DNA of 20,000 nucleotides from an uncultured virus (IMG/VR IMGVR_UViG_3300032019_000120) (Duplodnaviria > Heunggongvirae > Uroviricota > Caudoviricetes), in IMG/VR virus record IMGVR_UViG_3300032019_000120, one strand, 5' to 3'. Numbering within the stretch: the stretch's first letter is position 1; every line of letters begins with the position of its first letter. The notes under the pieces are model-generated. The model made no database searches. It was given only the letters and a program-made list of their open reading frames with translations, and had not been told where the DNA came from. The position numbers were made by a program, and so were the translations under genes. Below, piece after piece: positions 6,556 through 19,782 of the stretch.

Positions 6556-7581
6556 ATGTTAAAATCATTTTTTTGGAGCAGCGACAGAGCCTTTTATGCT
6601 TGGGCAATGTTATCACTACTTTTGATAATGTCTTGGTACACAGTAGAGATATTAGTTTTTTATAACGCATGGAATAAAGAGATATACGATGCAATTCAAT
6701 CGTTGCAAGAGGATAGATTCTGGACGTTATTCTTAGGATTCGATCTAACTCGATTTACAGACTTTGTTCTTCTTAAAGAAGACACCTTGCCCTCATTTGT
6801 TGAGATTATTACCCTCTATACTCCAATAGCAGTATACGGTTCTTGGCAGACAGCAAGGTATTGTTTCAATTGGAGAGAGTCTAATACGTACCACTACTTA
6901 AAGAGGTGGGAGGTTTCGCCTGCTAAGATTGAGGGTGGAAGTCAGCGTATTCAAGAAGACTTAATGATATTCGGTAGAACACTTCAAGGATTATTTACTG
7001 GATTCTTCTCTGCTATTTTAGTTTTATTTGCTTTCCTTCCTATTCTATGGGATTTATCTGAGGGACTTCCAATTTGGAATGGAGAAATTGTTCCAGGATT
7101 CTTAGTATGGGTAGCACTTGGTGTATCAATAGGTGGTACATTAATATCATTAATTCTAGGTTGGAAACTACCTAAACTTGAATACAATAATCAAGTGGTG
7201 GAAGCTAAGTTTAGAAAGCAATTAGTATATTCAGAAGACGACTTCTCTATGAGGGCAACAGATGTACTATTCCCTATGTTCTCAAATGTTAAGAAGAATT
7301 ATTACCGATTGTTTAATTGGTACATGGGTTTTGGTGTTTGGCAAACAGCATTTAGTTTATGTGTTGGTAATGTGGCGCTAATCGTATTAGCGCCAGCTTA
7401 CTTTGACCAACTGATTACACTTGGAGTTCTATTCCAAGTACTAAACGCTTTCGGACGCGTAGAAAGTTCGATGGGTTACTTTATCGACCGATGGACCACA
7501 ATTGTGGACTTCTTATCAGTCATCCGTCGTATCCGTGAATTTAACATAGCTTTGGACGAAGCAGAACGTAAGAAGAGTTAA
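6556..7581 (+). CDS. SbmA/BacA-like inner-membrane transporter (no ATPase domain)
   Basis: FNWRES, IEGGSQRIQED, LFAFLPILW.LS, LP.LEYNNQVVEAKFRKQLVYSED, ITLG..FQ.LNAFGRVESS and WTTIV motifs; multiple TM segments. Confidence 0.9.
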   Translation: MLKSFFWSSDRAFYAWAMLSLLLIMSWYTVEILVFYNAWNKEIYDAIQSLQEDRFWTLFLGFDLTRFTDFVLLKEDTLPSFVEIITLYTPIAVYGSWQTARYCFNWRESNTYHYLKRWEVSPAKIEGGSQRIQEDLMIFGRTLQGLFTGFFSAILVLFAFLPILWDLSEGLPIWNGEIVPGFLVWVALGVSIGGTLISLILGWKLPKLEYNNQVVEAKFRKQLVYSEDDFSMRATDVLFPMFSNVKKNYYRLFNWYMGFGVWQTAFSLCVGNVALIVLAPAYFDQLITLGVLFQVLNAFGRVESSMGYFIDRWTTIVDFLSVIRRIREFNIALDEAERKKS

Positions 7582-7582
7582 C

Positions 7583-8083
7583 ATGAAAAATAAAACGTTA
7601 CTCAGGTGGTGGTTGTTCACTACAATCACCACCATAGGGGTATGGCCACTATGGCATTATGGAGTATTCCAAGATATATATCATGCTGATGTAACACAAA
7701 TCAGTATGGCGATTTATGGTGTATTTTTATTAGGTATGGGTATAACAGGGGTAGCAGCATACCGAACAGCCGTATCCATTGATAGGGGGTATAATAGGCT
7801 TACTAGAAACATTATAGACTTGGGATGGTTCCTATCTGAAACTATGATGGTGTTAGGACTCATTGGTACTGTAGCAGGTATGATTTACCTGTTTGGTCAA
7901 ATCTTTGTGAATATAGACCCCAACGATCCGAACGACTTGAAGGAGGCTTTAAGTCATATGGCGTCTGGATTATCAACAGCAATGTATACTACAATTGTTG
8001 GTATGGTAGGTGCTTTAATTACGAAATGTCAGTTAATGAACATCGACTTTGACCAACCTCGGAGTAGTAGTGGACAAGGCTAA
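7583..8083 (+). CDS. MotA/TolQ/ExbB proton-channel family protein
   Basis: LGLIGTVAGMI and GLSTAMYTTIVG signature helices, plus two N-terminal TM segments. Confidence 0.85.
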   Translation: MKNKTLLRWWLFTTITTIGVWPLWHYGVFQDIYHADVTQISMAIYGVFLLGMGITGVAAYRTAVSIDRGYNRLTRNIIDLGWFLSETMMVLGLIGTVAGMIYLFGQIFVNIDPNDPNDLKEALSHMASGLSTAMYTTIVGMVGALITKCQLMNIDFDQPRSSSGQG

Positions 8084-8753: not shown

Positions 8754-9232
8754 TGTTAGATGCTGACGCAATCAAATTAGTATTAGTAATATCATTATTC
8801 TTACTAATGGGGTTCTCTTTATTGGTTGCTATAAAATATAGTAGGTCGAATAATTGGCTATACTTTATGATTCCAATAATATTAATGTTGTCTATTAGCA
8901 CTAAAACTGGAATGGATCGAATAATGGGATATCCATTAATAGCTAACACAACTGAACACCACGTATATATACATCACATGGTAGGTATTAATAAGGAGTG
9001 GATTTACGTATGGGCCATTGAACATAAAATATCACCAGAACCGCGTTCATATAAGATTGAATACACGAAGAAAAGAGAAAAACAATTGGCAGAAGCTAAA
9101 CAAGCCCAAAACCAAGGTATTCCACAAGGAATATTATTACCACCACAATTGGAAGGGCCTGAGTCATCAGAGTCCCAAGATGAGACTTTACAACTTTACA
9201 ACTTTAATAGACTAGAAGGGTATGAAAAATAA
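8750..9232 (+). CDS. Hypothetical membrane protein with two TM helices
   Basis: Two hydrophobic N-terminal segments, then GYP, WIYVW and EPRSYKIEY. It is translationally coupled (ATGA) to the upstream gene. Confidence 0.7.
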   Translation: MMLDADAIKLVLVISLFLLMGFSLLVAIKYSRSNNWLYFMIPIILMLSISTKTGMDRIMGYPLIANTTEHHVYIHHMVGINKEWIYVWAIEHKISPEPRSYKIEYTKKREKQLAEAKQAQNQGIPQGILLPPQLEGPESSESQDETLQLYNFNRLEGYEK

Positions 9233-9821
9233 AATGAGTGACACAAAAGTAGAAAATGGGCCGATGAATCCGGCCGAAGCTATTCCACCAAAGATGGATT
9301 TACATCTAAACGGAATGATGGTGTTCATGGGTGACGTAACTATGGAAAGTATGGGTCCCGTAATCGAGTGGATCCTAGCAGCTAACATGAAGGTTAATAA
9401 GCCTAGTGAACTTACTTTAGGAGTATGTTCGAGGGGAGGCGATTTAAACGCCTGCTTTGCTTTGGTTGATGTTATGAGAGCATCCTCTATTCCTATTCGA
9501 ACGATCGGATTGGGTATGATTGCTTCATGTGGTCTTCTAATCTTTATCTCAGGCGAGAAAGGTAGAAGGATTCTAACACCAAACACAGCAATCCTATCTC
9601 ATCAATATTCTTGGGGTTCACAAGGAAAGGAACACGAGTTGTTCGCAAGAGTTAAAGAGATGGAACTTACAACTAAACGATTAATTGATCATTATAAAAA
9701 AGTGACTGGATTAACAGAGAAACAAATCAGACAACATTTATTACCACCACATGATGTGTGGTTATCAGCGAATGAGGCCAAAAAGCTGAAACTGTGTGAT
9801 AAAGTTGAAGAAATAAAATAG
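9222..9821 (+). CDS. clpP: ClpP protease proteolytic subunit
   Basis: S.GG motif, TIGLGMIASCG (catalytic Ser), SHQ (His) and DVWLSANEAKKL.L.D (Asp); 199 aa. Confidence 0.92.
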   Translation: MKNKMSDTKVENGPMNPAEAIPPKMDLHLNGMMVFMGDVTMESMGPVIEWILAANMKVNKPSELTLGVCSRGGDLNACFALVDVMRASSIPIRTIGLGMIASCGLLIFISGEKGRRILTPNTAILSHQYSWGSQGKEHELFARVKEMELTTKRLIDHYKKVTGLTEKQIRQHLLPPHDVWLSANEAKKLKLCDKVEEIK

Positions 9822-13119: not shown

Positions 13120-14761
13120 GAATTTCCTGGCGGCAGGAAATAACCCAATTACAATCCAACTAGATAAAAGTAAATCCACCTTGATTGTGGGGGCTAATGG
13201 AGCTGGTAAATCTACAATACTGGATGCCCTTTCATTTGCTTTATTTGGTAAGGCTCATAGGAGTGTGCCCAAGAACGGATTGATAAATTCTGTCAATGGT
13301 AAACAATGTGAAGTATCGGTTGAATTTAATACTGCTGGACATGACTTTAAAATCATCAGGGGTATTAAACCTAATAAGTTTGAGGTGTGGCAAGATGGAT
13401 CAATGATCGACCAAAGCGCATCTGTTAGAGACTATCAAAAGTTTTTAGAACAGAACATTCTAAAACTTAATCACAAGAGCTTTCATCAGATAGTAGTACT
13501 TGGTTCATCATCATTCATTCCGTTTATGCAACTCAACTCTAATCATAGACGAGAGGTCATCGAAGACTTATTAGACATCAATATATTCTCAAAGATGAAG
13601 AGCATTCTTCGTGAGAATCTGGCTGGTGTTAGACAGAAGGCTCGTGATTCTAAAGTAGCATTAGATGCTCAGAGTGATAAGATTGATTATCAAAAGAAAC
13701 ACATACGTAATCTTGATAACATCAATATAGCAGCAAAGGCATCTAATGATGTAGCTATTAATACGCTGAAGGAAGATATATCCCAGTTGACCTCTAAGAT
13801 AACAGTGAGCGATGATGACGTCAAAGGTTGGAGTCAGACTGTCAACACTTTAACATCTACTAGAGATAGTCTACATCAACAAGTTGGTGTTTGTAAGCAT
13901 GATATCAAAAAGCTAGCTACAAGAGGTAAATTCTTTGAAGATAATGATATCTGTCCAACATGCACTCAAACTATAGAGGGTGATCTGAAACATAATATGC
14001 TTGATATCGTTAAGAATGATGCTGATAAAGTGATATCAAAAATGAAAGACTCTGAGAAGGAATTTGATAACGCAGTAGAGACGTTGAGATTAGTACATGA
14101 AGTTCAAACAGAGCATAAAGCAATCATTGATCAGATAGCACATAAGACCACCGAGTTATCTAATATTCAAAATCTAACCACGTCTCATGCTGATGTAAAG
14201 GAACCAGTATCTGATTTATATAAGATGATGAATACAGCAGATGAGTTAAGGGACGAGATGGATAGGTGTAATGACGACTTAACGTATGGTGAAATAGCAA
14301 GTGAGATGCTAAAGGATACTGGTATTCGTACAAAGGTTATTAGAGAGTATCTTCCAGCAATGAACACTCTAATCAATCAATACTTACAAACACTCGACTT
14401 CTTTGTTGCTTTTCATTTAGACGAAAACTTCCAAGAGACTATCAAATCAAGACATAGGGATAGCTTTGTATATGCAAACTTCTCTGAAGGCGAGAAGATG
14501 AGGATTGACTTGAGTCTACTGTTTGCTTGGAGACAAATAGCCAAGATGAAAAATTCAACTAACACCAATCTATTAATACTAGATGAAACGTTTGATTCTT
14601 CCTTGGATATAGAGGGAGTGGACAATCTAATGAAGATTCTGTTTACTCTAGATAAAGATACAAACACGTTTATCATATCACATAAGCCTGACATGTTGGA
14701 CGGTAAGATGAAGAGCAAAATTGAATTTAAGAAGATAAATAACTTTTCGAGGATAGCATGA
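13091..14761 (+). CDS. gp46: Recombination exonuclease ATPase gp46 (Rad50/SbcC-like)
   Basis: GANGAGKS Walker A, coiled coil with a CPTC zinc hook, FSEGEK signature, LLILDE Walker B and ISH. Confidence 0.96.
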   Translation: MITFQTLTYKNFLAAGNNPITIQLDKSKSTLIVGANGAGKSTILDALSFALFGKAHRSVPKNGLINSVNGKQCEVSVEFNTAGHDFKIIRGIKPNKFEVWQDGSMIDQSASVRDYQKFLEQNILKLNHKSFHQIVVLGSSSFIPFMQLNSNHRREVIEDLLDINIFSKMKSILRENLAGVRQKARDSKVALDAQSDKIDYQKKHIRNLDNINIAAKASNDVAINTLKEDISQLTSKITVSDDDVKGWSQTVNTLTSTRDSLHQQVGVCKHDIKKLATRGKFFEDNDICPTCTQTIEGDLKHNMLDIVKNDADKVISKMKDSEKEFDNAVETLRLVHEVQTEHKAIIDQIAHKTTELSNIQNLTTSHADVKEPVSDLYKMMNTADELRDEMDRCNDDLTYGEIASEMLKDTGIRTKVIREYLPAMNTLINQYLQTLDFFVAFHLDENFQETIKSRHRDSFVYANFSEGEKMRIDLSLLFAWRQIAKMKNSTNTNLLILDETFDSSLDIEGVDNLMKILFTLDKDTNTFIISHKPDMLDGKMKSKIEFKKINNFSRIA

Positions 14762-15063
14762 ATATTGAACCAAAAGACTTAATAGATGGAATATGTGAAG
14801 TAGAGAACATTCTACCAAGACAACTACTAGCAGACTTGAAGGGGACATACGAAAAGATGTACTCATTCAACGACTATTTGTCAAATAAGAAGATGCCTAA
14901 CCGTATGAAGGTTGACCTCGAAAGTAGATACTATAAGGGATATGCTTTAGCTATGAATACCGTTAACAAGATGCGGAGGAAATCTCAACGATTACTGTCA
15001 AGCGTTGTGCAGTGGGCAGTTATTGTAGGTGGTATATTATACTTACTGTCAGTTTTCTTATAA
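14758..15063 (+). CDS. Hypothetical protein with a C-terminal TM helix
   Basis: 101-aa ORF coupled to the gp46 stop, with a GAGGA RBS and a hydrophobic C-terminal tail. Confidence 0.6.
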   Translation: MNIEPKDLIDGICEVENILPRQLLADLKGTYEKMYSFNDYLSNKKMPNRMKVDLESRYYKGYALAMNTVNKMRRKSQRLLSSVVQWAVIVGGILYLLSVFL

Positions 15064-15066
15064 ATA
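15059..15066 (+). promoter_or_regulatory. Late promoter TATAAATA upstream of glutamine synthetase
   Basis: Exact consensus overlapping the previous stop codon. A transcript from it would begin just before the structured leader. Confidence 0.6.
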
Positions 15067-15073
15067 ATCACGA

Positions 15074-15123
15074 GAATCCAACGAAGGGTTCACCTTGACA
15101 ACGAAGTCCTTTTCACTAAAGGA
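15074..15123 (+). promoter_or_regulatory. ANTAR-type dual-hexaloop RNA leader with a competing anti-Shine-Dalgarno hairpin
   Basis: P1 is GAAUCC-AACGAA-GGGUUC (15074-15091), followed by a 5-nt linker and P2 GAC-AACGAA-GUC (15097-15108). The alternative hairpin UCCUUU-UCACU-AAAGGA (15107-15123) buries the RBS. Confidence 0.65.
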
Positions 15124-15131
15124 AAATAATA

Positions 15132-16118
15132 ATGTTAAATAAAACAATTCTAGAATACGTTTGGTTAGGAGCTAACCAAGAACTACGTAGTAAAATAAAA
15201 GTATCCCATAAACACATCAACACAATCAAAGATATATCAAAGTGGTCTTTCGACGGATCATCAACAGAGCAGGCCCCTGGTGACAAGTCAGATTGCATCT
15301 TAAAGCCTGTTAAGATGTATCCGAGTCCATTCTTTGATGATAGCTATCTTGTCATGTGTGAAGTTGAAGACCACGTAACCAACATAAGGAAAGACATTAG
15401 GAATGATGCATCTGCTATTTGGTTTGGGTTTGAACAAGAATATGTTATCTATAAAGATGGCAGAGTTCTAGGCTGGCCAGAAGAAGGTGAGCCAGGACCA
15501 CAAGGTCCATATTACTGTGGAGTAGGAACGGAAAATGTTGCTGGTAGATGGTTTGCTGACGAACACTTGAAATTATGTATTAGTGCTAATATTAATATTA
15601 CTGGCACAAACGCAGAAGTCATGGTTGGTCAGTGGGAGTATCAAGTGCTGAGTTTCGGAGCTAAGGCAGCTGGTGATGATGTTTGGATGTCTCGATATAT
15701 CTTACGTAGGCTAAGCGAGAAGTATGGATACATAATCAATTTAGAACCAAAGCCGGTTAAAGGTGATTGGAACGGATCAGGTCTACACGTGAACTTCTCT
15801 ACACCATCAATGAGGTCAGGTGCTACCAAAGAAACCTTCGATAATATAATTGATAAGCTAGCTAAAAGGCATGAAGATCATATTGCTGTATATGGTAAGG
15901 ATAATGACCAAAGACTAACTGGTAAGCATGAAACTGCTAGCATTGATGAATTCACTGCTGGACCATCTGATAGAGGAGCATCTATCAGAATCCCATTGGC
16001 AGTTATTGAATCCGATTGGACTGGGGGGTATCTTGAAGATAGACGACCAGCATCTAATGCTAATCCGTATGATATTACTAAAGTTATATTAGATACAATC
16101 GATTATAAGTTGAATTAA
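15132..16118 (+). CDS. glnII: Glutamine synthetase type II
   Basis: 328 aa with EYVW, WSFDGSSTEQA.G..SD, WFGFEQEY, GPQGPYYCGVG, NAEVM.GQWEYQ, GDWNGSG.H.NFS, RLTGKHET, RGASIRIP and GYLEDRRPASN motifs. Confidence 0.95.
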   Translation: MLNKTILEYVWLGANQELRSKIKVSHKHINTIKDISKWSFDGSSTEQAPGDKSDCILKPVKMYPSPFFDDSYLVMCEVEDHVTNIRKDIRNDASAIWFGFEQEYVIYKDGRVLGWPEEGEPGPQGPYYCGVGTENVAGRWFADEHLKLCISANINITGTNAEVMVGQWEYQVLSFGAKAAGDDVWMSRYILRRLSEKYGYIINLEPKPVKGDWNGSGLHVNFSTPSMRSGATKETFDNIIDKLAKRHEDHIAVYGKDNDQRLTGKHETASIDEFTAGPSDRGASIRIPLAVIESDWTGGYLEDRRPASNANPYDITKVILDTIDYKLN

Positions 16119-16153
16119 ACTAAACTTTAGTTGAATTTTTTACCGGGTCAATA
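16108..16153. repeat. Composite upstream element, copy 1 (19-bp box plus 25-bp box)
   Basis: AGTTGAATTAAACTAAACT (16108-16126) is the exact reverse complement of 18503-18521. AGTTGAATTTTTTACCGGGTCAATA (16129-16153) is identical to 18524-18548. Confidence 0.9.
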
Positions 16154-16166
16154 GTTAAAATAATTG

Positions 16167-16194
16167 TTGACCTTTGGTAAAAAGCGTGTATAAT
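16167..16194 (+). promoter_or_regulatory. sigma70-type promoter, probably early
   Basis: TTGACC (16167-16172), 16 bp, TATAAT (16189-16194), with an A-rich UP tract. Confidence 0.75.
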
Positions 16195-16230
16195 AGTAAG
16201 TACACCAATTGAGAACTACTATACTATATT

Positions 16231-18345
16231 ATGAATCTACAATCACAAGAACAACTCGCTAAATTACTCTCTAAAGAGAACTTATCAGTCCAACACGGAA
16301 ACTACCAAACAGCATCATTCGATATTAAGAATCGCGTGCTTAGACTTCCACTTTGGGAAGATAAAGGTAAGGACGTTTATGACTTATTAGTTGGCCATGA
16401 AGTCGGTCATGCTCTTTACACACCATATGAAGGCTGGCACGAAGCTGCTACATCAGTCTCTAACATTCCAAAAGGTTTCTTAAATATCGTTGAAGATATT
16501 CGTATTGAACGTAAGATTCAAGAGACTTATCCTGGTCTAAAAAGACGATTCAAAAAAGGTTATGTTCGACTAGTTGAAGACAACTTGTTCGGTACTGAAG
16601 GAAAGGACCTTTCCGAATTATCTTTCATGGACAGATTAAACATCTCTGCTAAAACACGTGGTGAGATTCCTATTGAGTTTTCATCTGAAGAGGTGCCATA
16701 TGTTAACAAAGCAATGGCTGTTGAAACTTGGGACGATGTTGTTAATGTTTGTCAAGAGCTAACTGATTGGTTAAGAGAACAAGAAGAAGAAAAGGACGAA
16801 GACGAAGATGGTGAAATGTCATCTGGTACTGAAGAGTCTGATGAAGAACAAGATGGTTCTAGTGCTAGTCAATCCGAAGAGGGTGAGCCAAGTAATGAAG
16901 AGCAAGAGGCTGAAGAGCAAGAGGCTTCTGCTTCTAGTTCTGACCCAATGGCTACTGACACTGATGATGCTTTCAGAAATAATGAAGAGCAACTACTTGA
17001 AAAGGATAAGCACGGTAAGACTCAACCTGAATTTTCATCTGGTATCTCAGATGAAAACCTCGACAAGGTTATATGCTCATACGCTAGTGCAAAAAAGATG
17101 CGTGATCAGGTTATTGATCAGCGTTCAACTGGTAGAGAAGACCGATTACAGTATAATGTATATGTTAGTGAACAAGTTACTGAGAAGTTTCTTGAAGATA
17201 AAAAAGGCTGGAACAAAACGGCTACTCTTCTTGCTAAAGATTTTGAGCGTAAGAAGGCCGCTTTTGAATATTCAAGAGCTACTGTGTCTAAGCGTGGTAC
17301 TCTGAACACTGACAAAATGTACCAATACAAGTACAGTGAAGACATCTTCAACAGTGTAACACAACTTGCTCAAGCACAAAGCCATGGTATCATCATGCAA
17401 ATTGACCTATCTGGTTCAATGAGTGACGTGATTAGTGATGTAGTTGCTCAAGCAATCACCATTGCTCTGTTTTGTAAAAAGGTACACATTCCTTTTGAGG
17501 TTTACACTTTTACTTCATCAGGTGCGCGCACTACCACACTACCTCAGAATAAATCAATAGAAGTTTCTGGTAATGGAATTCAGGGAATTCACAACTTAAA
17601 AATTGTTGAGTCCCTAAACACAAACATGAAAAAAGCAGAGTTTAACGAAGCTGCTCGTGCACTGTTCTCCTTGGGTGCTGTCCATTCATATAGTAATGCA
17701 AGATTTGGTTATATAGACCGTTATTCTATAGCCGCTTGTGATGAAATGGGCACCACCCCCCTTATTCAAGCTGTAATCGTTACAGCTCGTCTCGCTGAGA
17801 AGTTCCAACGCAAACATAATGTTCAAAAACTGAATATCATGATGCTAACCGATGGTTTTGCTGATCAAATTCATACTGAGCATGATGAACACAGAGATAT
17901 AAGTATTGACTACCGCGGCAGCATGTCAATTATGTTCAAGGGTAAGAGGGTTACTGCTGAAAACACAAGAGAGATGATGAAGGGGTGTCTTCTGAGATTG
18001 AAAGAGATAACTAAGGCTAAGACAATTGGATTCTTCCTTGCTGCTAATAAGAGTGATTATGGTAGTGGTCTCTATAATCTAGGCGGCCCACACGCGAGAC
18101 TCGATTTCAATAGTGAGTACAAAGCATGGAGAAAAAATAACTTCACTGCTAAGAAAAAGGCAGCAGGATATGATGAGTACTTCATCATTAAAGTAGGTGG
18201 TAAGCCGGTTCCAGAGGAATTCAACCTACCATCTGATAAGAGTGAAAAGATTAAGGACATCCGTAATCAATTCAAAAAGTTCAATAAGAGCAAAAAATCA
18301 ACCAAACAGCTAGTGAGTAGAATCTCAGACGCTGTTGCAATATAG
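16231..18345 (+). CDS. CobT-like protein: N-terminal HExxH metallopeptidase-like domain, acidic linker and C-terminal vWA domain
   Basis: HEVGH and NIVEDIRIE motifs, an E/D/S-rich linker, MIDAS DLSGS, GTTPL and MLTDG. It lies upstream of a CobS-like AAA+ gene, as in marine T4-like phages. Confidence 0.85.
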   Translation: MNLQSQEQLAKLLSKENLSVQHGNYQTASFDIKNRVLRLPLWEDKGKDVYDLLVGHEVGHALYTPYEGWHEAATSVSNIPKGFLNIVEDIRIERKIQETYPGLKRRFKKGYVRLVEDNLFGTEGKDLSELSFMDRLNISAKTRGEIPIEFSSEEVPYVNKAMAVETWDDVVNVCQELTDWLREQEEEKDEDEDGEMSSGTEESDEEQDGSSASQSEEGEPSNEEQEAEEQEASASSSDPMATDTDDAFRNNEEQLLEKDKHGKTQPEFSSGISDENLDKVICSYASAKKMRDQVIDQRSTGREDRLQYNVYVSEQVTEKFLEDKKGWNKTATLLAKDFERKKAAFEYSRATVSKRGTLNTDKMYQYKYSEDIFNSVTQLAQAQSHGIIMQIDLSGSMSDVISDVVAQAITIALFCKKVHIPFEVYTFTSSGARTTTLPQNKSIEVSGNGIQGIHNLKIVESLNTNMKKAEFNEAARALFSLGAVHSYSNARFGYIDRYSIAACDEMGTTPLIQAVIVTARLAEKFQRKHNVQKLNIMMLTDGFADQIHTEHDEHRDISIDYRGSMSIMFKGKRVTAENTREMMKGCLLRLKEITKAKTIGFFLAANKSDYGSGLYNLGGPHARLDFNSEYKAWRKNNFTAKKKAAGYDEYFIIKVGGKPVPEEFNLPSDKSEKIKDIRNQFKKFNKSKKSTKQLVSRISDAVAI

Positions 18346-18590: not shown

Positions 18591-18642
18591 GTAATTATAA
18601 CGGTTGGGAATGGCCCAATCAATTTTGAGAAAGGACTATATA

Positions 18643-19782
18643 ATGATAAACAAAAAAGTGATAGAAACGTTAATTGAAAATGGTACAACATGTACCACTG
18701 CTGATTATGTAAAAGCTGCTGTAAGCCTTGGAATCAACAAGCACACAGCTGCTGCTCAATCGAGAAAGCTTCCTGCCATTGCTGGCACAAGACCTACTCA
18801 ATATGACCTACAGCTGTACGCTCCGAAGTCGGAGAAGTCTGTTGTTGAACATGTTGGTGTTAAGAGTGTTGCTAATGAGGAAGTTTATGTTCCTCCTATG
18901 GATGAAACATTTGTTCCTTGGGGCAACTTCAAAGACCTTTTGATGATTGTCAAAAGTCGGATGTTCTACCCTACGTACATTTCTGGTCTCTCCGGTAATG
19001 GTAAGACGTTCATGATTGAACAAGCAGCTTCAAAAGTTGGTCGTGAATATGTTCGTGTTCAGATTTCACCTGAGACTGATGAAGACGACTTGATTGGTGG
19101 TTTCCGTTTGATTGATGGTGAAACTGTTTTCCAAAAAGGTCCAGTAATCAAAGCTATGGAAGCTGGTGCTCTTTTGATGATTGATGAGATTGACCGTGGA
19201 ACAAATAAAATCATGTGTCTTCAAGGTGTTCTTGAAGGTAAGCCAGTTCTGATTAAAAAGACTGGTGAAGTGATTACACCTGCTAATGGTTTCAACATTC
19301 TTGCTACTGCTAACACGAAAGGTCGTGGTTCAGATGATGGTCGCTATTCAGCTGCTGGTCTGATCGATGATGCTTTCCTTGAGCGTTTTACAATCACAAT
19401 GGAGCAGAAGTTTCCTTCTGCTGCAATTGAAAAGAAAATCATCATGAATCATATGAAGAAGTTTGAGAAGATTGATGAAGAGTTCGCTGATTTGTTAATC
19501 GGTTGGGCTGGTGCTATCAGAGCAACGTTCGATGACGATGGTATTGATGAAGTAATCTCTACTCGTCGTCTTTGTCACATTGTTCAAACATTTTCAATCT
19601 TTGGTAAACGCGACAAAGCTATTGCTCTTTGCGTTAACCGTTTTGATGATGAAACTAAAGAGGCATTCCTTGACTTATATGAAAAGGTGGATGCTACAAT
19701 CAATAACCCAGAAGTCAGCACAAGTGATGCTGATGATATTAATAAAGAACCACAACATAATGAGGAGTCAGAATGGTCTTAA
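18643..19782 (+). CDS. cobS: CobS-like / MoxR-family AAA+ ATPase
   Basis: ATG 18643 follows AAGGA. Motifs include GLSGNGKT Walker A, ETDEDDLIGGFRL, LMIDEID Walker B, ATANTKG.GS.DGR, AFLERF and ISTRRL. Confidence 0.88.
   Translation: MINKKVIETLIENGTTCTTADYVKAAVSLGINKHTAAAQSRKLPAIAGTRPTQYDLQLYAPKSEKSVVEHVGVKSVANEEVYVPPMDETFVPWGNFKDLLMIVKSRMFYPTYISGLSGNGKTFMIEQAASKVGREYVRVQISPETDEDDLIGGFRLIDGETVFQKGPVIKAMEAGALLMIDEIDRGTNKIMCLQGVLEGKPVLIKKTGEVITPANGFNILATANTKGRGSDDGRYSAAGLIDDAFLERFTITMEQKFPSAAIEKKIIMNHMKKFEKIDEEFADLLIGWAGAIRATFDDDGIDEVISTRRLCHIVQTFSIFGKRDKAIALCVNRFDDETKEAFLDLYEKVDATINNPEVSTSDADDINKEPQHNEESEWS

Follow-up and report, generated by a model that had tools for sequence, protein, structure and literature searches.

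The glutamine synthetase gene and its leader

In a 20,000-nucleotide (nt) stretch of DNA from an uncultured virus (IMG/VR record IMGVR_UViG_3300032019_000120; hereafter, the window), a gene encoding a type II glutamine synthetase (GSII; GlnII-like, 328 amino acids (aa)) occupies positions 15132..16118 of the + strand. It is preceded by a short leader with two small hexaloop hairpins, which resemble the RNA targets of ANTAR proteins, and with a third hairpin, which sequesters the Shine-Dalgarno (SD) sequence. This leader is the subject of our analysis. The window represents a T4-like myovirus, as judged from Pfam matches to gp23, gp19-like, UvsY, UvsW, gp47-like and gp46-like proteins, and its closest cultured phages, which are ~50-56% identical in UvsW and gp23, are Pelagibacter phage HTVC008M, Methylophilales phage Melnitz and cyanomyophages. 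The glutamine synthetase (GS) contains both the Gln-synt_N and the Gln-synt_C domain of Pfam, and is similar over its full length (residues 4-323) to eukaryote-type GSII chains in the PDB (E = 4.5e-94). As its NCBIfam GlnII score of 338 bits is below the equivalog cut-off of 500, it is a divergent member of GSII. Among 50,697 phage records, no match to the region was found by blastn, and the GS matched by tblastn only four uncultured huge-phage records, with 43-51% identity.

A promoter box, two hairpins and an SD hairpin had been proposed for this leader in a preliminary description of the DNA, and each of them was found exactly where that description had placed it. The box, TATAAATA (15059..15066, + strand), matches the T4-type late-promoter consensus and is a putative promoter; the stop codon of the upstream open reading frame (ORF), at 15061-63, falls inside it. 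The window contains four copies of TATAAATA, all on the + strand, three of which are just upstream of ORFs. The first hairpin, P1 (15074..15091, + strand), consists of 6 base pairs (bp), one of them U.G, between GAAUCC (15074-79) and GGGUUC (15086-91), and of the hexaloop AACGAA (15080-85). A 5-nt linker, ACCUU (15092..15096, + strand), separates it from the second hairpin, P2 (15097..15108, + strand), in which only 3 bp between GAC (15097-99) and GUC (15106-08) enclose the same hexaloop (15100-05), and which is weak alone. Both hexaloops are closed by a C-G pair. The SD-sequestering hairpin (15107..15123, + strand) pairs UCCUUU (15107-12) with AAAGGA (15118-23) around the loop UCACU, and U15107 and C15108 are common to P2 and to this anti-SD helix. 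Its 3' arm contains the SD sequence AAGGA (15119..15123, + strand), assigned from its position and sequence, 8 nt upstream of the AUG at 15132. No U-run follows the hairpin, and no terminator-like site was found on the + strand of the leader. Since the competing hairpin hides the SD sequence and lacks a U-tract, control by this leader would be translational and not by antitermination.

The minimum free energy (MFE) structure of the leader consists of P1 and the full anti-SD hairpin (z = -2.4; 2 of 200 shuffles fold as well). In the window, the MFE structure also includes a 6-bp helix, UUGACA/UGUUAA, which pairs 15095-15100 with 15133-15138 over the AUG. As it engages the 5' arm of P2 with the start-codon region, this helix would strengthen the OFF state and compete with P2. 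By eye, it is absent from the other leaders described below, and we did not take it as a part of the element.

Considered alone, the pattern in the window is only mildly beyond chance and is suggestive only. The octamer CAACGAAG occurs in two copies in 20 kb, where 0.29 are expected, and two or more copies were present in 9 of 200 shuffles. A generic descriptor of two hexaloop hairpins of the A..G.. type had four matches in the window as compared to 1.9 in simulated sequence; its version with identical loops was seen in 1 of 100 simulations. It is the comparative data across leaders that indicate that the element is real.

Searches for known RNA families in the 14900-15300 region with Rfam, ranked by E-value, returned only MALAT1, which is unstructured, and narK (RF03032; 12.7 bits, E = 6.8). 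The gathering threshold of narK is 43.2 bits, and five bacterial genomes have many matches at 12-20 bits, none of them at nirB; we therefore regard this match as noise. Scans of eight related loci assigned no family to the leaders, only tmRNA (transfer-messenger RNA) beside the bacterial ones. The glutamine riboswitches, glnA RNA and Downstream-peptide RNA, had no match at E <= 10 in 14900-15300 or in the eight related loci.

Related leaders in phages and bacteria

In the IMG/VR database, this GS has at least 599 relatives; the best 80 were analysed. A covariance model of P1, linker and P2 (R1), whose seed alignment includes the window sequence, matched 20 of these 80 closest loci, in every case with a single match located immediately upstream of GS; with next to no sequence before GS, five of the 80 cannot be judged for a leader. 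In the window, the match at 15072..15109 (+ strand; 49.5 bits, E = 6e-12, with the window sequence in the model seed) was the sole significant one, and the next best scored 10.3 bits. The leader is present in one copy per phage record, and likewise in one copy in the window. Further leaders came from pattern scans of IMG/VR and of metagenome contigs; altogether, 72 matches were reduced to 13 unique leaders before phage GS genes, plus variants. Among the matches listed by an early, loose pattern scan, almost all were chance occurrences in coding DNA, and one (L196) was a real locus. The GS proteins encoded behind the leader are 50-64% identical to each other and to that of the window, and TATAAATA is located 5-9 nt before P1 in 11 of the 13 unique phage leaders.

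A structural alignment was made of 17 distinct leaders. Their P1 stems are unrelated in sequence and yet complementary (GAAUCC/GGGUUC, UAGUAC/GUACUA, GGGC/GCUC, CAGCGU/GCGUUG, AUUGC/GCGAU): in five of the six pairs both partners vary, and the inner four form in all 17. Overall, 85% of the P1 cells are paired, as compared to 32-44% after a shift of the partners by 1-3 columns, and the P1 covariation score of 0.527 (0.211 in shuffles) was matched by none of 500 shuffles. P2 is also paired in 17/17 leaders, with a closing pair that is C-G or U.G and with a fourth pair (G-C) in 5/17. Both loops are 6 nt long, with A at position 1 (A1) and G at position 4 (G4), in every aligned leader and additionally in L009. 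The variation is confined to loop positions 3, 5 and 6 (AACGAA, AACGAG, AAUGGC, AAAGAA, AACGAU, AACGAC). The linker varies in length and sequence among the relatives, from about 3 to 8 nt, and in most of them measures 5-8 nt.

All 17 leaders have the anti-SD helix. It comprises 6-9 bp with a variable loop, its U-run and A-run lengthen together, and its overlap with P2 is always 2-3 nt. The MFE structure is P1 plus the anti-SD helix in 16/17 leaders, and P2 is outside the MFE structure in those 16. Forcing P2 to form costs up to ~4 kcal/mol (zero in the one leader with P2 already in the MFE structure) and shortens the anti-SD helix by removing its G-C-rich base. The preliminary description had named loop conservation and stem covariation as the features to look for in the leaders of related phage GS genes. 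The homologous leaders indeed keep both hexaloops together with a covarying P1 stem; the A1/G4 loop rule, on which that description had relied, stands, and the mutually exclusive overlap that it had drawn between P2 and the SD-sequestering helix is conserved as well.

In a tree of GS proteins (62 rows after duplicates and partial ORFs had been dropped; the midpoint root served for display alone), one well-supported clade of 26 contains 16 of the 17 leader-bearing rows, together with 10 rows that form a nested group and have another leader. The last of the 17, L201, is in the other half of the tree, and the topology implies at least three gains or losses of the leader. None of the genes that neighbour GS in the window (those for a 101-aa ORF, gp46, a 704-aa ORF and AAA_5) was found beside GS in 12 other GS-bearing loci. 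As no neighbour gene is conserved, the conserved unit is promoter, leader and GS; and as only this unit is common to the loci, no adjacent phage gene is a candidate for the protein that binds the leader.

The same leader, with P2 loops AACGAU or AACGAC and the same late-promoter box, also precedes a second phage gene. This gene encodes a protein of 75-77 aa of no known family, which starts with MYHDSGLCGFL, and is flanked by the gp19-like gene and uvsY in each of three T4-like contigs (L365:5607-5840, - strand; L366:1682-1909, + strand; L367:181-408, + strand). It is a putative second member of the phage regulon.

Sister-clade GS loci (L002, L004, L006, L012, L019-L022) do not have the ANTAR-type leader in the ~100 nt upstream of GS. 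Instead, CATAAAATTAAGCRTTTT occurs there twice, and, read by eye, an upstream ORF of just ~23 codons ends in a stop codon that overlaps the GS start codon (ATGA). This suggests that the sister clade would be under different control, perhaps by translational coupling.

A scan for the P2-loop/anti-SD pattern in one genome per species (185,579 species) gave 25 loci, 24 of them due to chance. The sole real one was found in a ~1.1 Mb marine metagenome-assembled genome (MAG) titled 'Gammaproteobacteria bacterium', where the module reads GAC-AACGAA-GUCCUUUU...AAAAGGA-AUG. Upstream of P2 it has a P1, GAUACC-AAUGGC-GGUAU, which also has a hexaloop with A1 and G4, and in whose metagenome variants G.U replaces A-U. 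This leader is between a tmRNA gene and nirB, which is followed by a formate/nitrite transporter gene. The MAG encodes a single 201-aa protein with a Response_reg and an ANTAR domain (the NasT architecture), beside a CBS-domain gene and amt. When 61 relatives and 122 genomes of the order of the MAG were searched with R1, only the MAG itself was retrieved; three other matches (E 0.002-0.007) were dismissed, as they lie inside coding DNA. Biased to phage-type sequence, R1 fails to detect the leaders of G040, G092 and G084, which are weaker.

Among 151 relatives of the MAG, 73 have NirB and 94 have an ANTAR gene. A tally of the two tables places the ANTAR gene in 61 of the 73 NirB-positive versus 33 of the 78 NirB-negative relatives, with one count in these tallies, and no other result, contributed by G138, a genome flagged as unpublished. 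In the three closest NirB loci (72-76% identity), the leader likewise sequesters the SD sequence, and its P2 loop is AAAGAC or AAAGAU. By eye, the SD-type nirB leaders of L374-L376 (G040, G092, G084) seem to hold three hexaloop hairpins; those of G092 are UAAUAC-AGUGCA-GUAUUA, AAC-AGCGAA-GUU and GAC-AAAGAU-GUC, the middle one being very weak. Of 26 more distant nirB loci, at least 20 carry a canonical leader for ANTAR antitermination: its P2 (GGU-AUUGAA-GCC) overlaps an intrinsic terminator, being the 5' base of a long hairpin with U6-9 behind it. By inspection, the P1 hexaloop is of the type AAAGAU, AAGGUG or AAAGUA in 17 of those 20. The canonical leaders (L377-L402, from relatives of G006) directly follow a U-run resembling the terminator of the upstream gene. 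They are unrecognised by Rfam narK, and may be an undescribed family of NasT leaders. Comparison of these loci indicates that one bacterial group has both a terminator and a translational form of the nirB leader, and that the phage leader fits the translational one.

A candidate translational switch and its alternatives

It is close to certain that the leader is a cis-regulatory RNA. Judging from the sequence comparisons, it is probably a translational ON switch that responds to a host ANTAR protein of the NasT type, and that travels in a portable cassette of late promoter, leader and GS. The ~60-nt 5' leader of the GSII mRNA would be transcribed from the T4-type late promoter, which ends ~7 nt before P1. 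In the OFF state, the free RNA would fold as P1 and the hairpin burying the SD sequence. In the ON state, a dimeric, NasT-like REC-ANTAR protein of the host would read both hexaloops through A1 and G4, and clamp the weak P2. P2 would thereby take the first 2-3 nt of the anti-SD helix; the remainder is mostly A-U and would abut the bound protein, so that the ribosome could load. As a result, the phage would produce its ammonium-assimilating enzyme only as long as the regulator by which the host turns on nirB is active. That the binder would be an ANTAR protein is suggested by the family-defining features of the RNA and by its bacterial homologue. We infer the direction of control (activation) from the default-OFF fold and from the role of NasT as an activator at nirB; the identity of the host, and the nitrogen signal that would be read, we infer as well. 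The nitrogen-linked ANTAR function that the preliminary description had envisaged draws support from the P2/anti-SD module before nirB in a MAG encoding a NasT-like protein, and from the canonical leaders in its relatives.

The leader shares many features with known ANTAR substrates, which consist of two small stem-loops with hexanucleotide loops and important closing pairs, and in which P2 overlaps a terminator (Ramesh et al. 2012, PMC3369931). A1 and G4 are required for binding and induction, as was shown for EutV and NasR (PMC3369931). The likeness to the eut leaders extends to the conserved closing pairs, in most leaders to a short linker of 5-8 nt, and to the tolerance of compensatory stem changes in P1; the differences are in the loop sequences, in the regulated genes, in the length of some phage linkers (~3 nt) and in the lack of a terminator in the phage leader. 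The leaders read by NasT and NasR (NalA nirBD of Pseudomonas putida, nasF of Klebsiella) likewise have two A1/G4 hexaloop hairpins, a P2 that competes with a downstream inhibitory hairpin, and nitrogen-assimilation targets, and a bacterial nirB leader has the identical P2 module. NasT controls nirBD of P. putida through hexaloop leaders, as an activator (PMC10783516). In contrast to these leaders, in that of the phage the competitor is an SD hairpin without a U-tract, and the element is phage-borne, precedes GSII and stands behind a T4-type late promoter. In bacteria, matches to the ANTAR motif have been described upstream of nitrogen genes, including glutamine synthase genes, with translational control merely suggested (PMC3369931).

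Opening of a cis-repressed SD sequence by an ANTAR protein has been engineered with the light-regulated NmPAL (PMC11381354). As proposed for the phage leader, the mRNA refolds when a protein binds its hairpin, and translation is switched ON; the NmPAL switches, however, are synthetic and use a single aptamer hairpin, and they are neither a natural nitrogen circuit nor phage-borne. Wiring of phage genes to a host nitrogen regulator has a precedent in the NtcA-binding sites of cyanomyophage genomes (PMC9083009, PMC8115048), but NtcA acts on DNA at transcription initiation, whereas the phage leader is an RNA proposed to be read by an RNA-binding regulator. Apparently, the leader combines a known type of ANTAR-target RNA with phage carriage, fusion to a late promoter and translational action. 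No description of an ANTAR-target element in a virus was found in a full-text literature search limited to the main texts in one library, and the word 'phage' does not occur in a 2025 review (PMC12591593).

Several observations weigh against a NasT-responsive ON switch. Of the two stems, P1 covaries, with five of its six pairs changed on both sides, and P2 does not: two of its pairs are invariant and one alternates between C-G and U.G, without compensatory change, and the support for P2 is thus conservation and not covariation. In three leaders (L242, L256, L291), the linker measures ~3 nt if P1 is counted as 6 bp and P2 as 4 bp; in eut leaders linkers span 5-12 nt, and linkers of 3 or 14 nt impaired eutP in E. 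faecalis (PMC3369931). As the overlap is just 2-3 nt, a remnant anti-SD helix of 4-7 bp can still form thermodynamically with P2 in place, and release of the SD sequence would need more than simple strand competition. Among the four genomes with SD-type leaders, a NasS-type sensor (PF13379) was not found above the cut-off in any, and an ANTAR gene was not found in one, G040. No curated RNA family recognises the leader. The preliminary description had noted no ANTAR gene in the window, in agreement with our Pfam search of its 24 larger ORFs, and none was found in five partial phage records (7-50% complete) either. Finally, the only natural translational control by ANTAR proteins that we found in print, in the same review (PMC12591593), is repression in mycobacteria.

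The two hexaloops, of the form AAxGAx, could instead be read by a phage-encoded protein or by another host RNA-binding protein, which would set the timing or the level of late translation. T4-like phages encode translational regulators, and the genome of this phage is visible for only 20 kb, the related records being at most 50% complete. A single-protein query of IMG/VR retrieved no phage-encoded ANTAR protein; an alignment query retrieved four contigs (L412-L415) with distant relatives of REC-ANTAR proteins (27-29% identity), so viral ANTAR genes would exist if these belong to the phages and not to host flanks. However, none of these four contigs has a match to R1, and no gene is conserved next to the cassette. 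Moreover, the same module is present before a bacterial nirB, where a phage protein cannot regulate, and the invariance of A1 and G4 fits ANTAR recognition specifically. On balance, we consider a binder of this kind unlikely.

Equally, the leader might act without any trans factor, as if P1 was a 5'-terminal stabiliser and the SD hairpin served to damp or thermally tune translation, or as if the leader was a riboswitch, with the resemblance to ANTAR targets being coincidental. P1 does start near the predicted 5' end of the transcript, P2 is not needed in the MFE structure, and matches to the generic descriptor arise by chance about twice per 20 kb. Such a leader would nevertheless not account for the invariance of both hexaloops and of a P2 of just 3 bp among GS genes that are 50-64% identical, for the fact that loop positions 1, 2 and 4 alone are fixed, or for the presence of the module in a nirB leader that has canonical ANTAR leaders as relatives. 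As for a riboswitch, two tiny hairpins offer no obvious ligand pocket, and glutamine riboswitches had no match even at E up to 10. This explanation therefore appears improbable.

An ANTAR protein could also bind the leader and repress, with its occupancy of P1 and P2 beside the SD hairpin blocking the loading of the 30S subunit, as was proposed for mycobacterial RNAs. There, ANTAR targets that overlap the ribosome-binding site (RBS) inhibit translation (PMC12591593, citing Mehta et al. 2020), and, in the phage leader, the remnant anti-SD helix can persist together with P2. The mycobacterial RNAs resemble the phage leader in that dual hairpins act on translation initiation; they differ in that the dual hairpin itself covers the RBS, so that binding inhibits, whereas the phage leader by default forms a distinct anti-SD hairpin, from which binding should release the SD sequence. 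As the SD sequence is already hidden without protein, repression would be redundant. Additionally, the same design precedes nirB, which is activated by NasT in the studied species (PMC10783516), and the homologous leader in relatives is an antiterminator, that is, an ON device. We regard repression as quite improbable. The proposal that the two CAACGAAG copies, a direct repeat spaced 20 bp in the window, serve a transcription factor as DNA operators immediately after the promoter can be set aside as highly implausible, as their spacing varies between 19 and 23 bp, their flanks covary as RNA stems, and the first copy is UAACGAAG, or AAUGGC, in some leaders.

If the leader is indeed a NasT-responsive switch, a broader picture follows, on which we are evenly divided: marine T4-like phages would use a portable cassette of late promoter and ANTAR-target leader to plug GSII and a small protein, at the level of translation, into the NasT regulon of nitrite assimilation of the host. 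The leaders would then be the first ANTAR-target RNAs in viruses and would provide the first natural example of translational activation that an ANTAR protein drives by anti-sequestration, and the same type of switch would have taken the place of the classical terminator in the leader of nirB in a small-genome marine gammaproteobacterial lineage. As its nirB leader has this type of switch, this lineage would be the predicted host, and the leader sequence could in turn serve as a marker for host prediction.

Auxiliary metabolic genes of phages are usually treated as constitutive cargo, whereas the phage GS appears to be gated by a nutrient-sensing RNA-binding regulator of the host. If confirmed, this would extend ANTAR regulation to viruses and to translational activation, offer a mechanistic reason for the presence of GS in phages (absorbing the ammonium from induction of the host nirB), and provide a sequence-level clue to the hosts of an abundant group of uncultured marine phages. 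Being tiny (~50 nt) and modular, the element is also attractive as a natural protein-responsive translational switch.

Metatranscriptome contigs and other genes of the window

Two marine metatranscriptome runs (X1 and X2) contain the 14400-16500 stretch as contigs with 99-100% identity. The contigs of X1 break at 15065/15083 and at 16147/16214, and the depth of the one with GS is 17 as compared to ~9.8 in its flanks; in X2, a break is present at 15105/15106. The depth and breaks in X1 are a weak hint of a separate GS transcript. We did not use the breaks as evidence, as contigs cannot show RNA ends or exclude DNA, and as the two runs stop at different places.

Downstream of GS, the window contains the 704-aa ORF, which has no Pfam family (16231-18345), and then a gene for an ATPase of the MoxR type with AAA_5 and CbbQ_C domains (18604-19782). 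Apart from GS, the auxiliary genes identified with Pfam include those for sugar-nucleotide enzymes, as well as three that are unusual for a T4-like phage: an SbmA/BacA-like inner-membrane transporter (6556-7581; 254 bits), a MotA/ExbB-family protein (7583-8083) and a ClpP protease (9222-9821).

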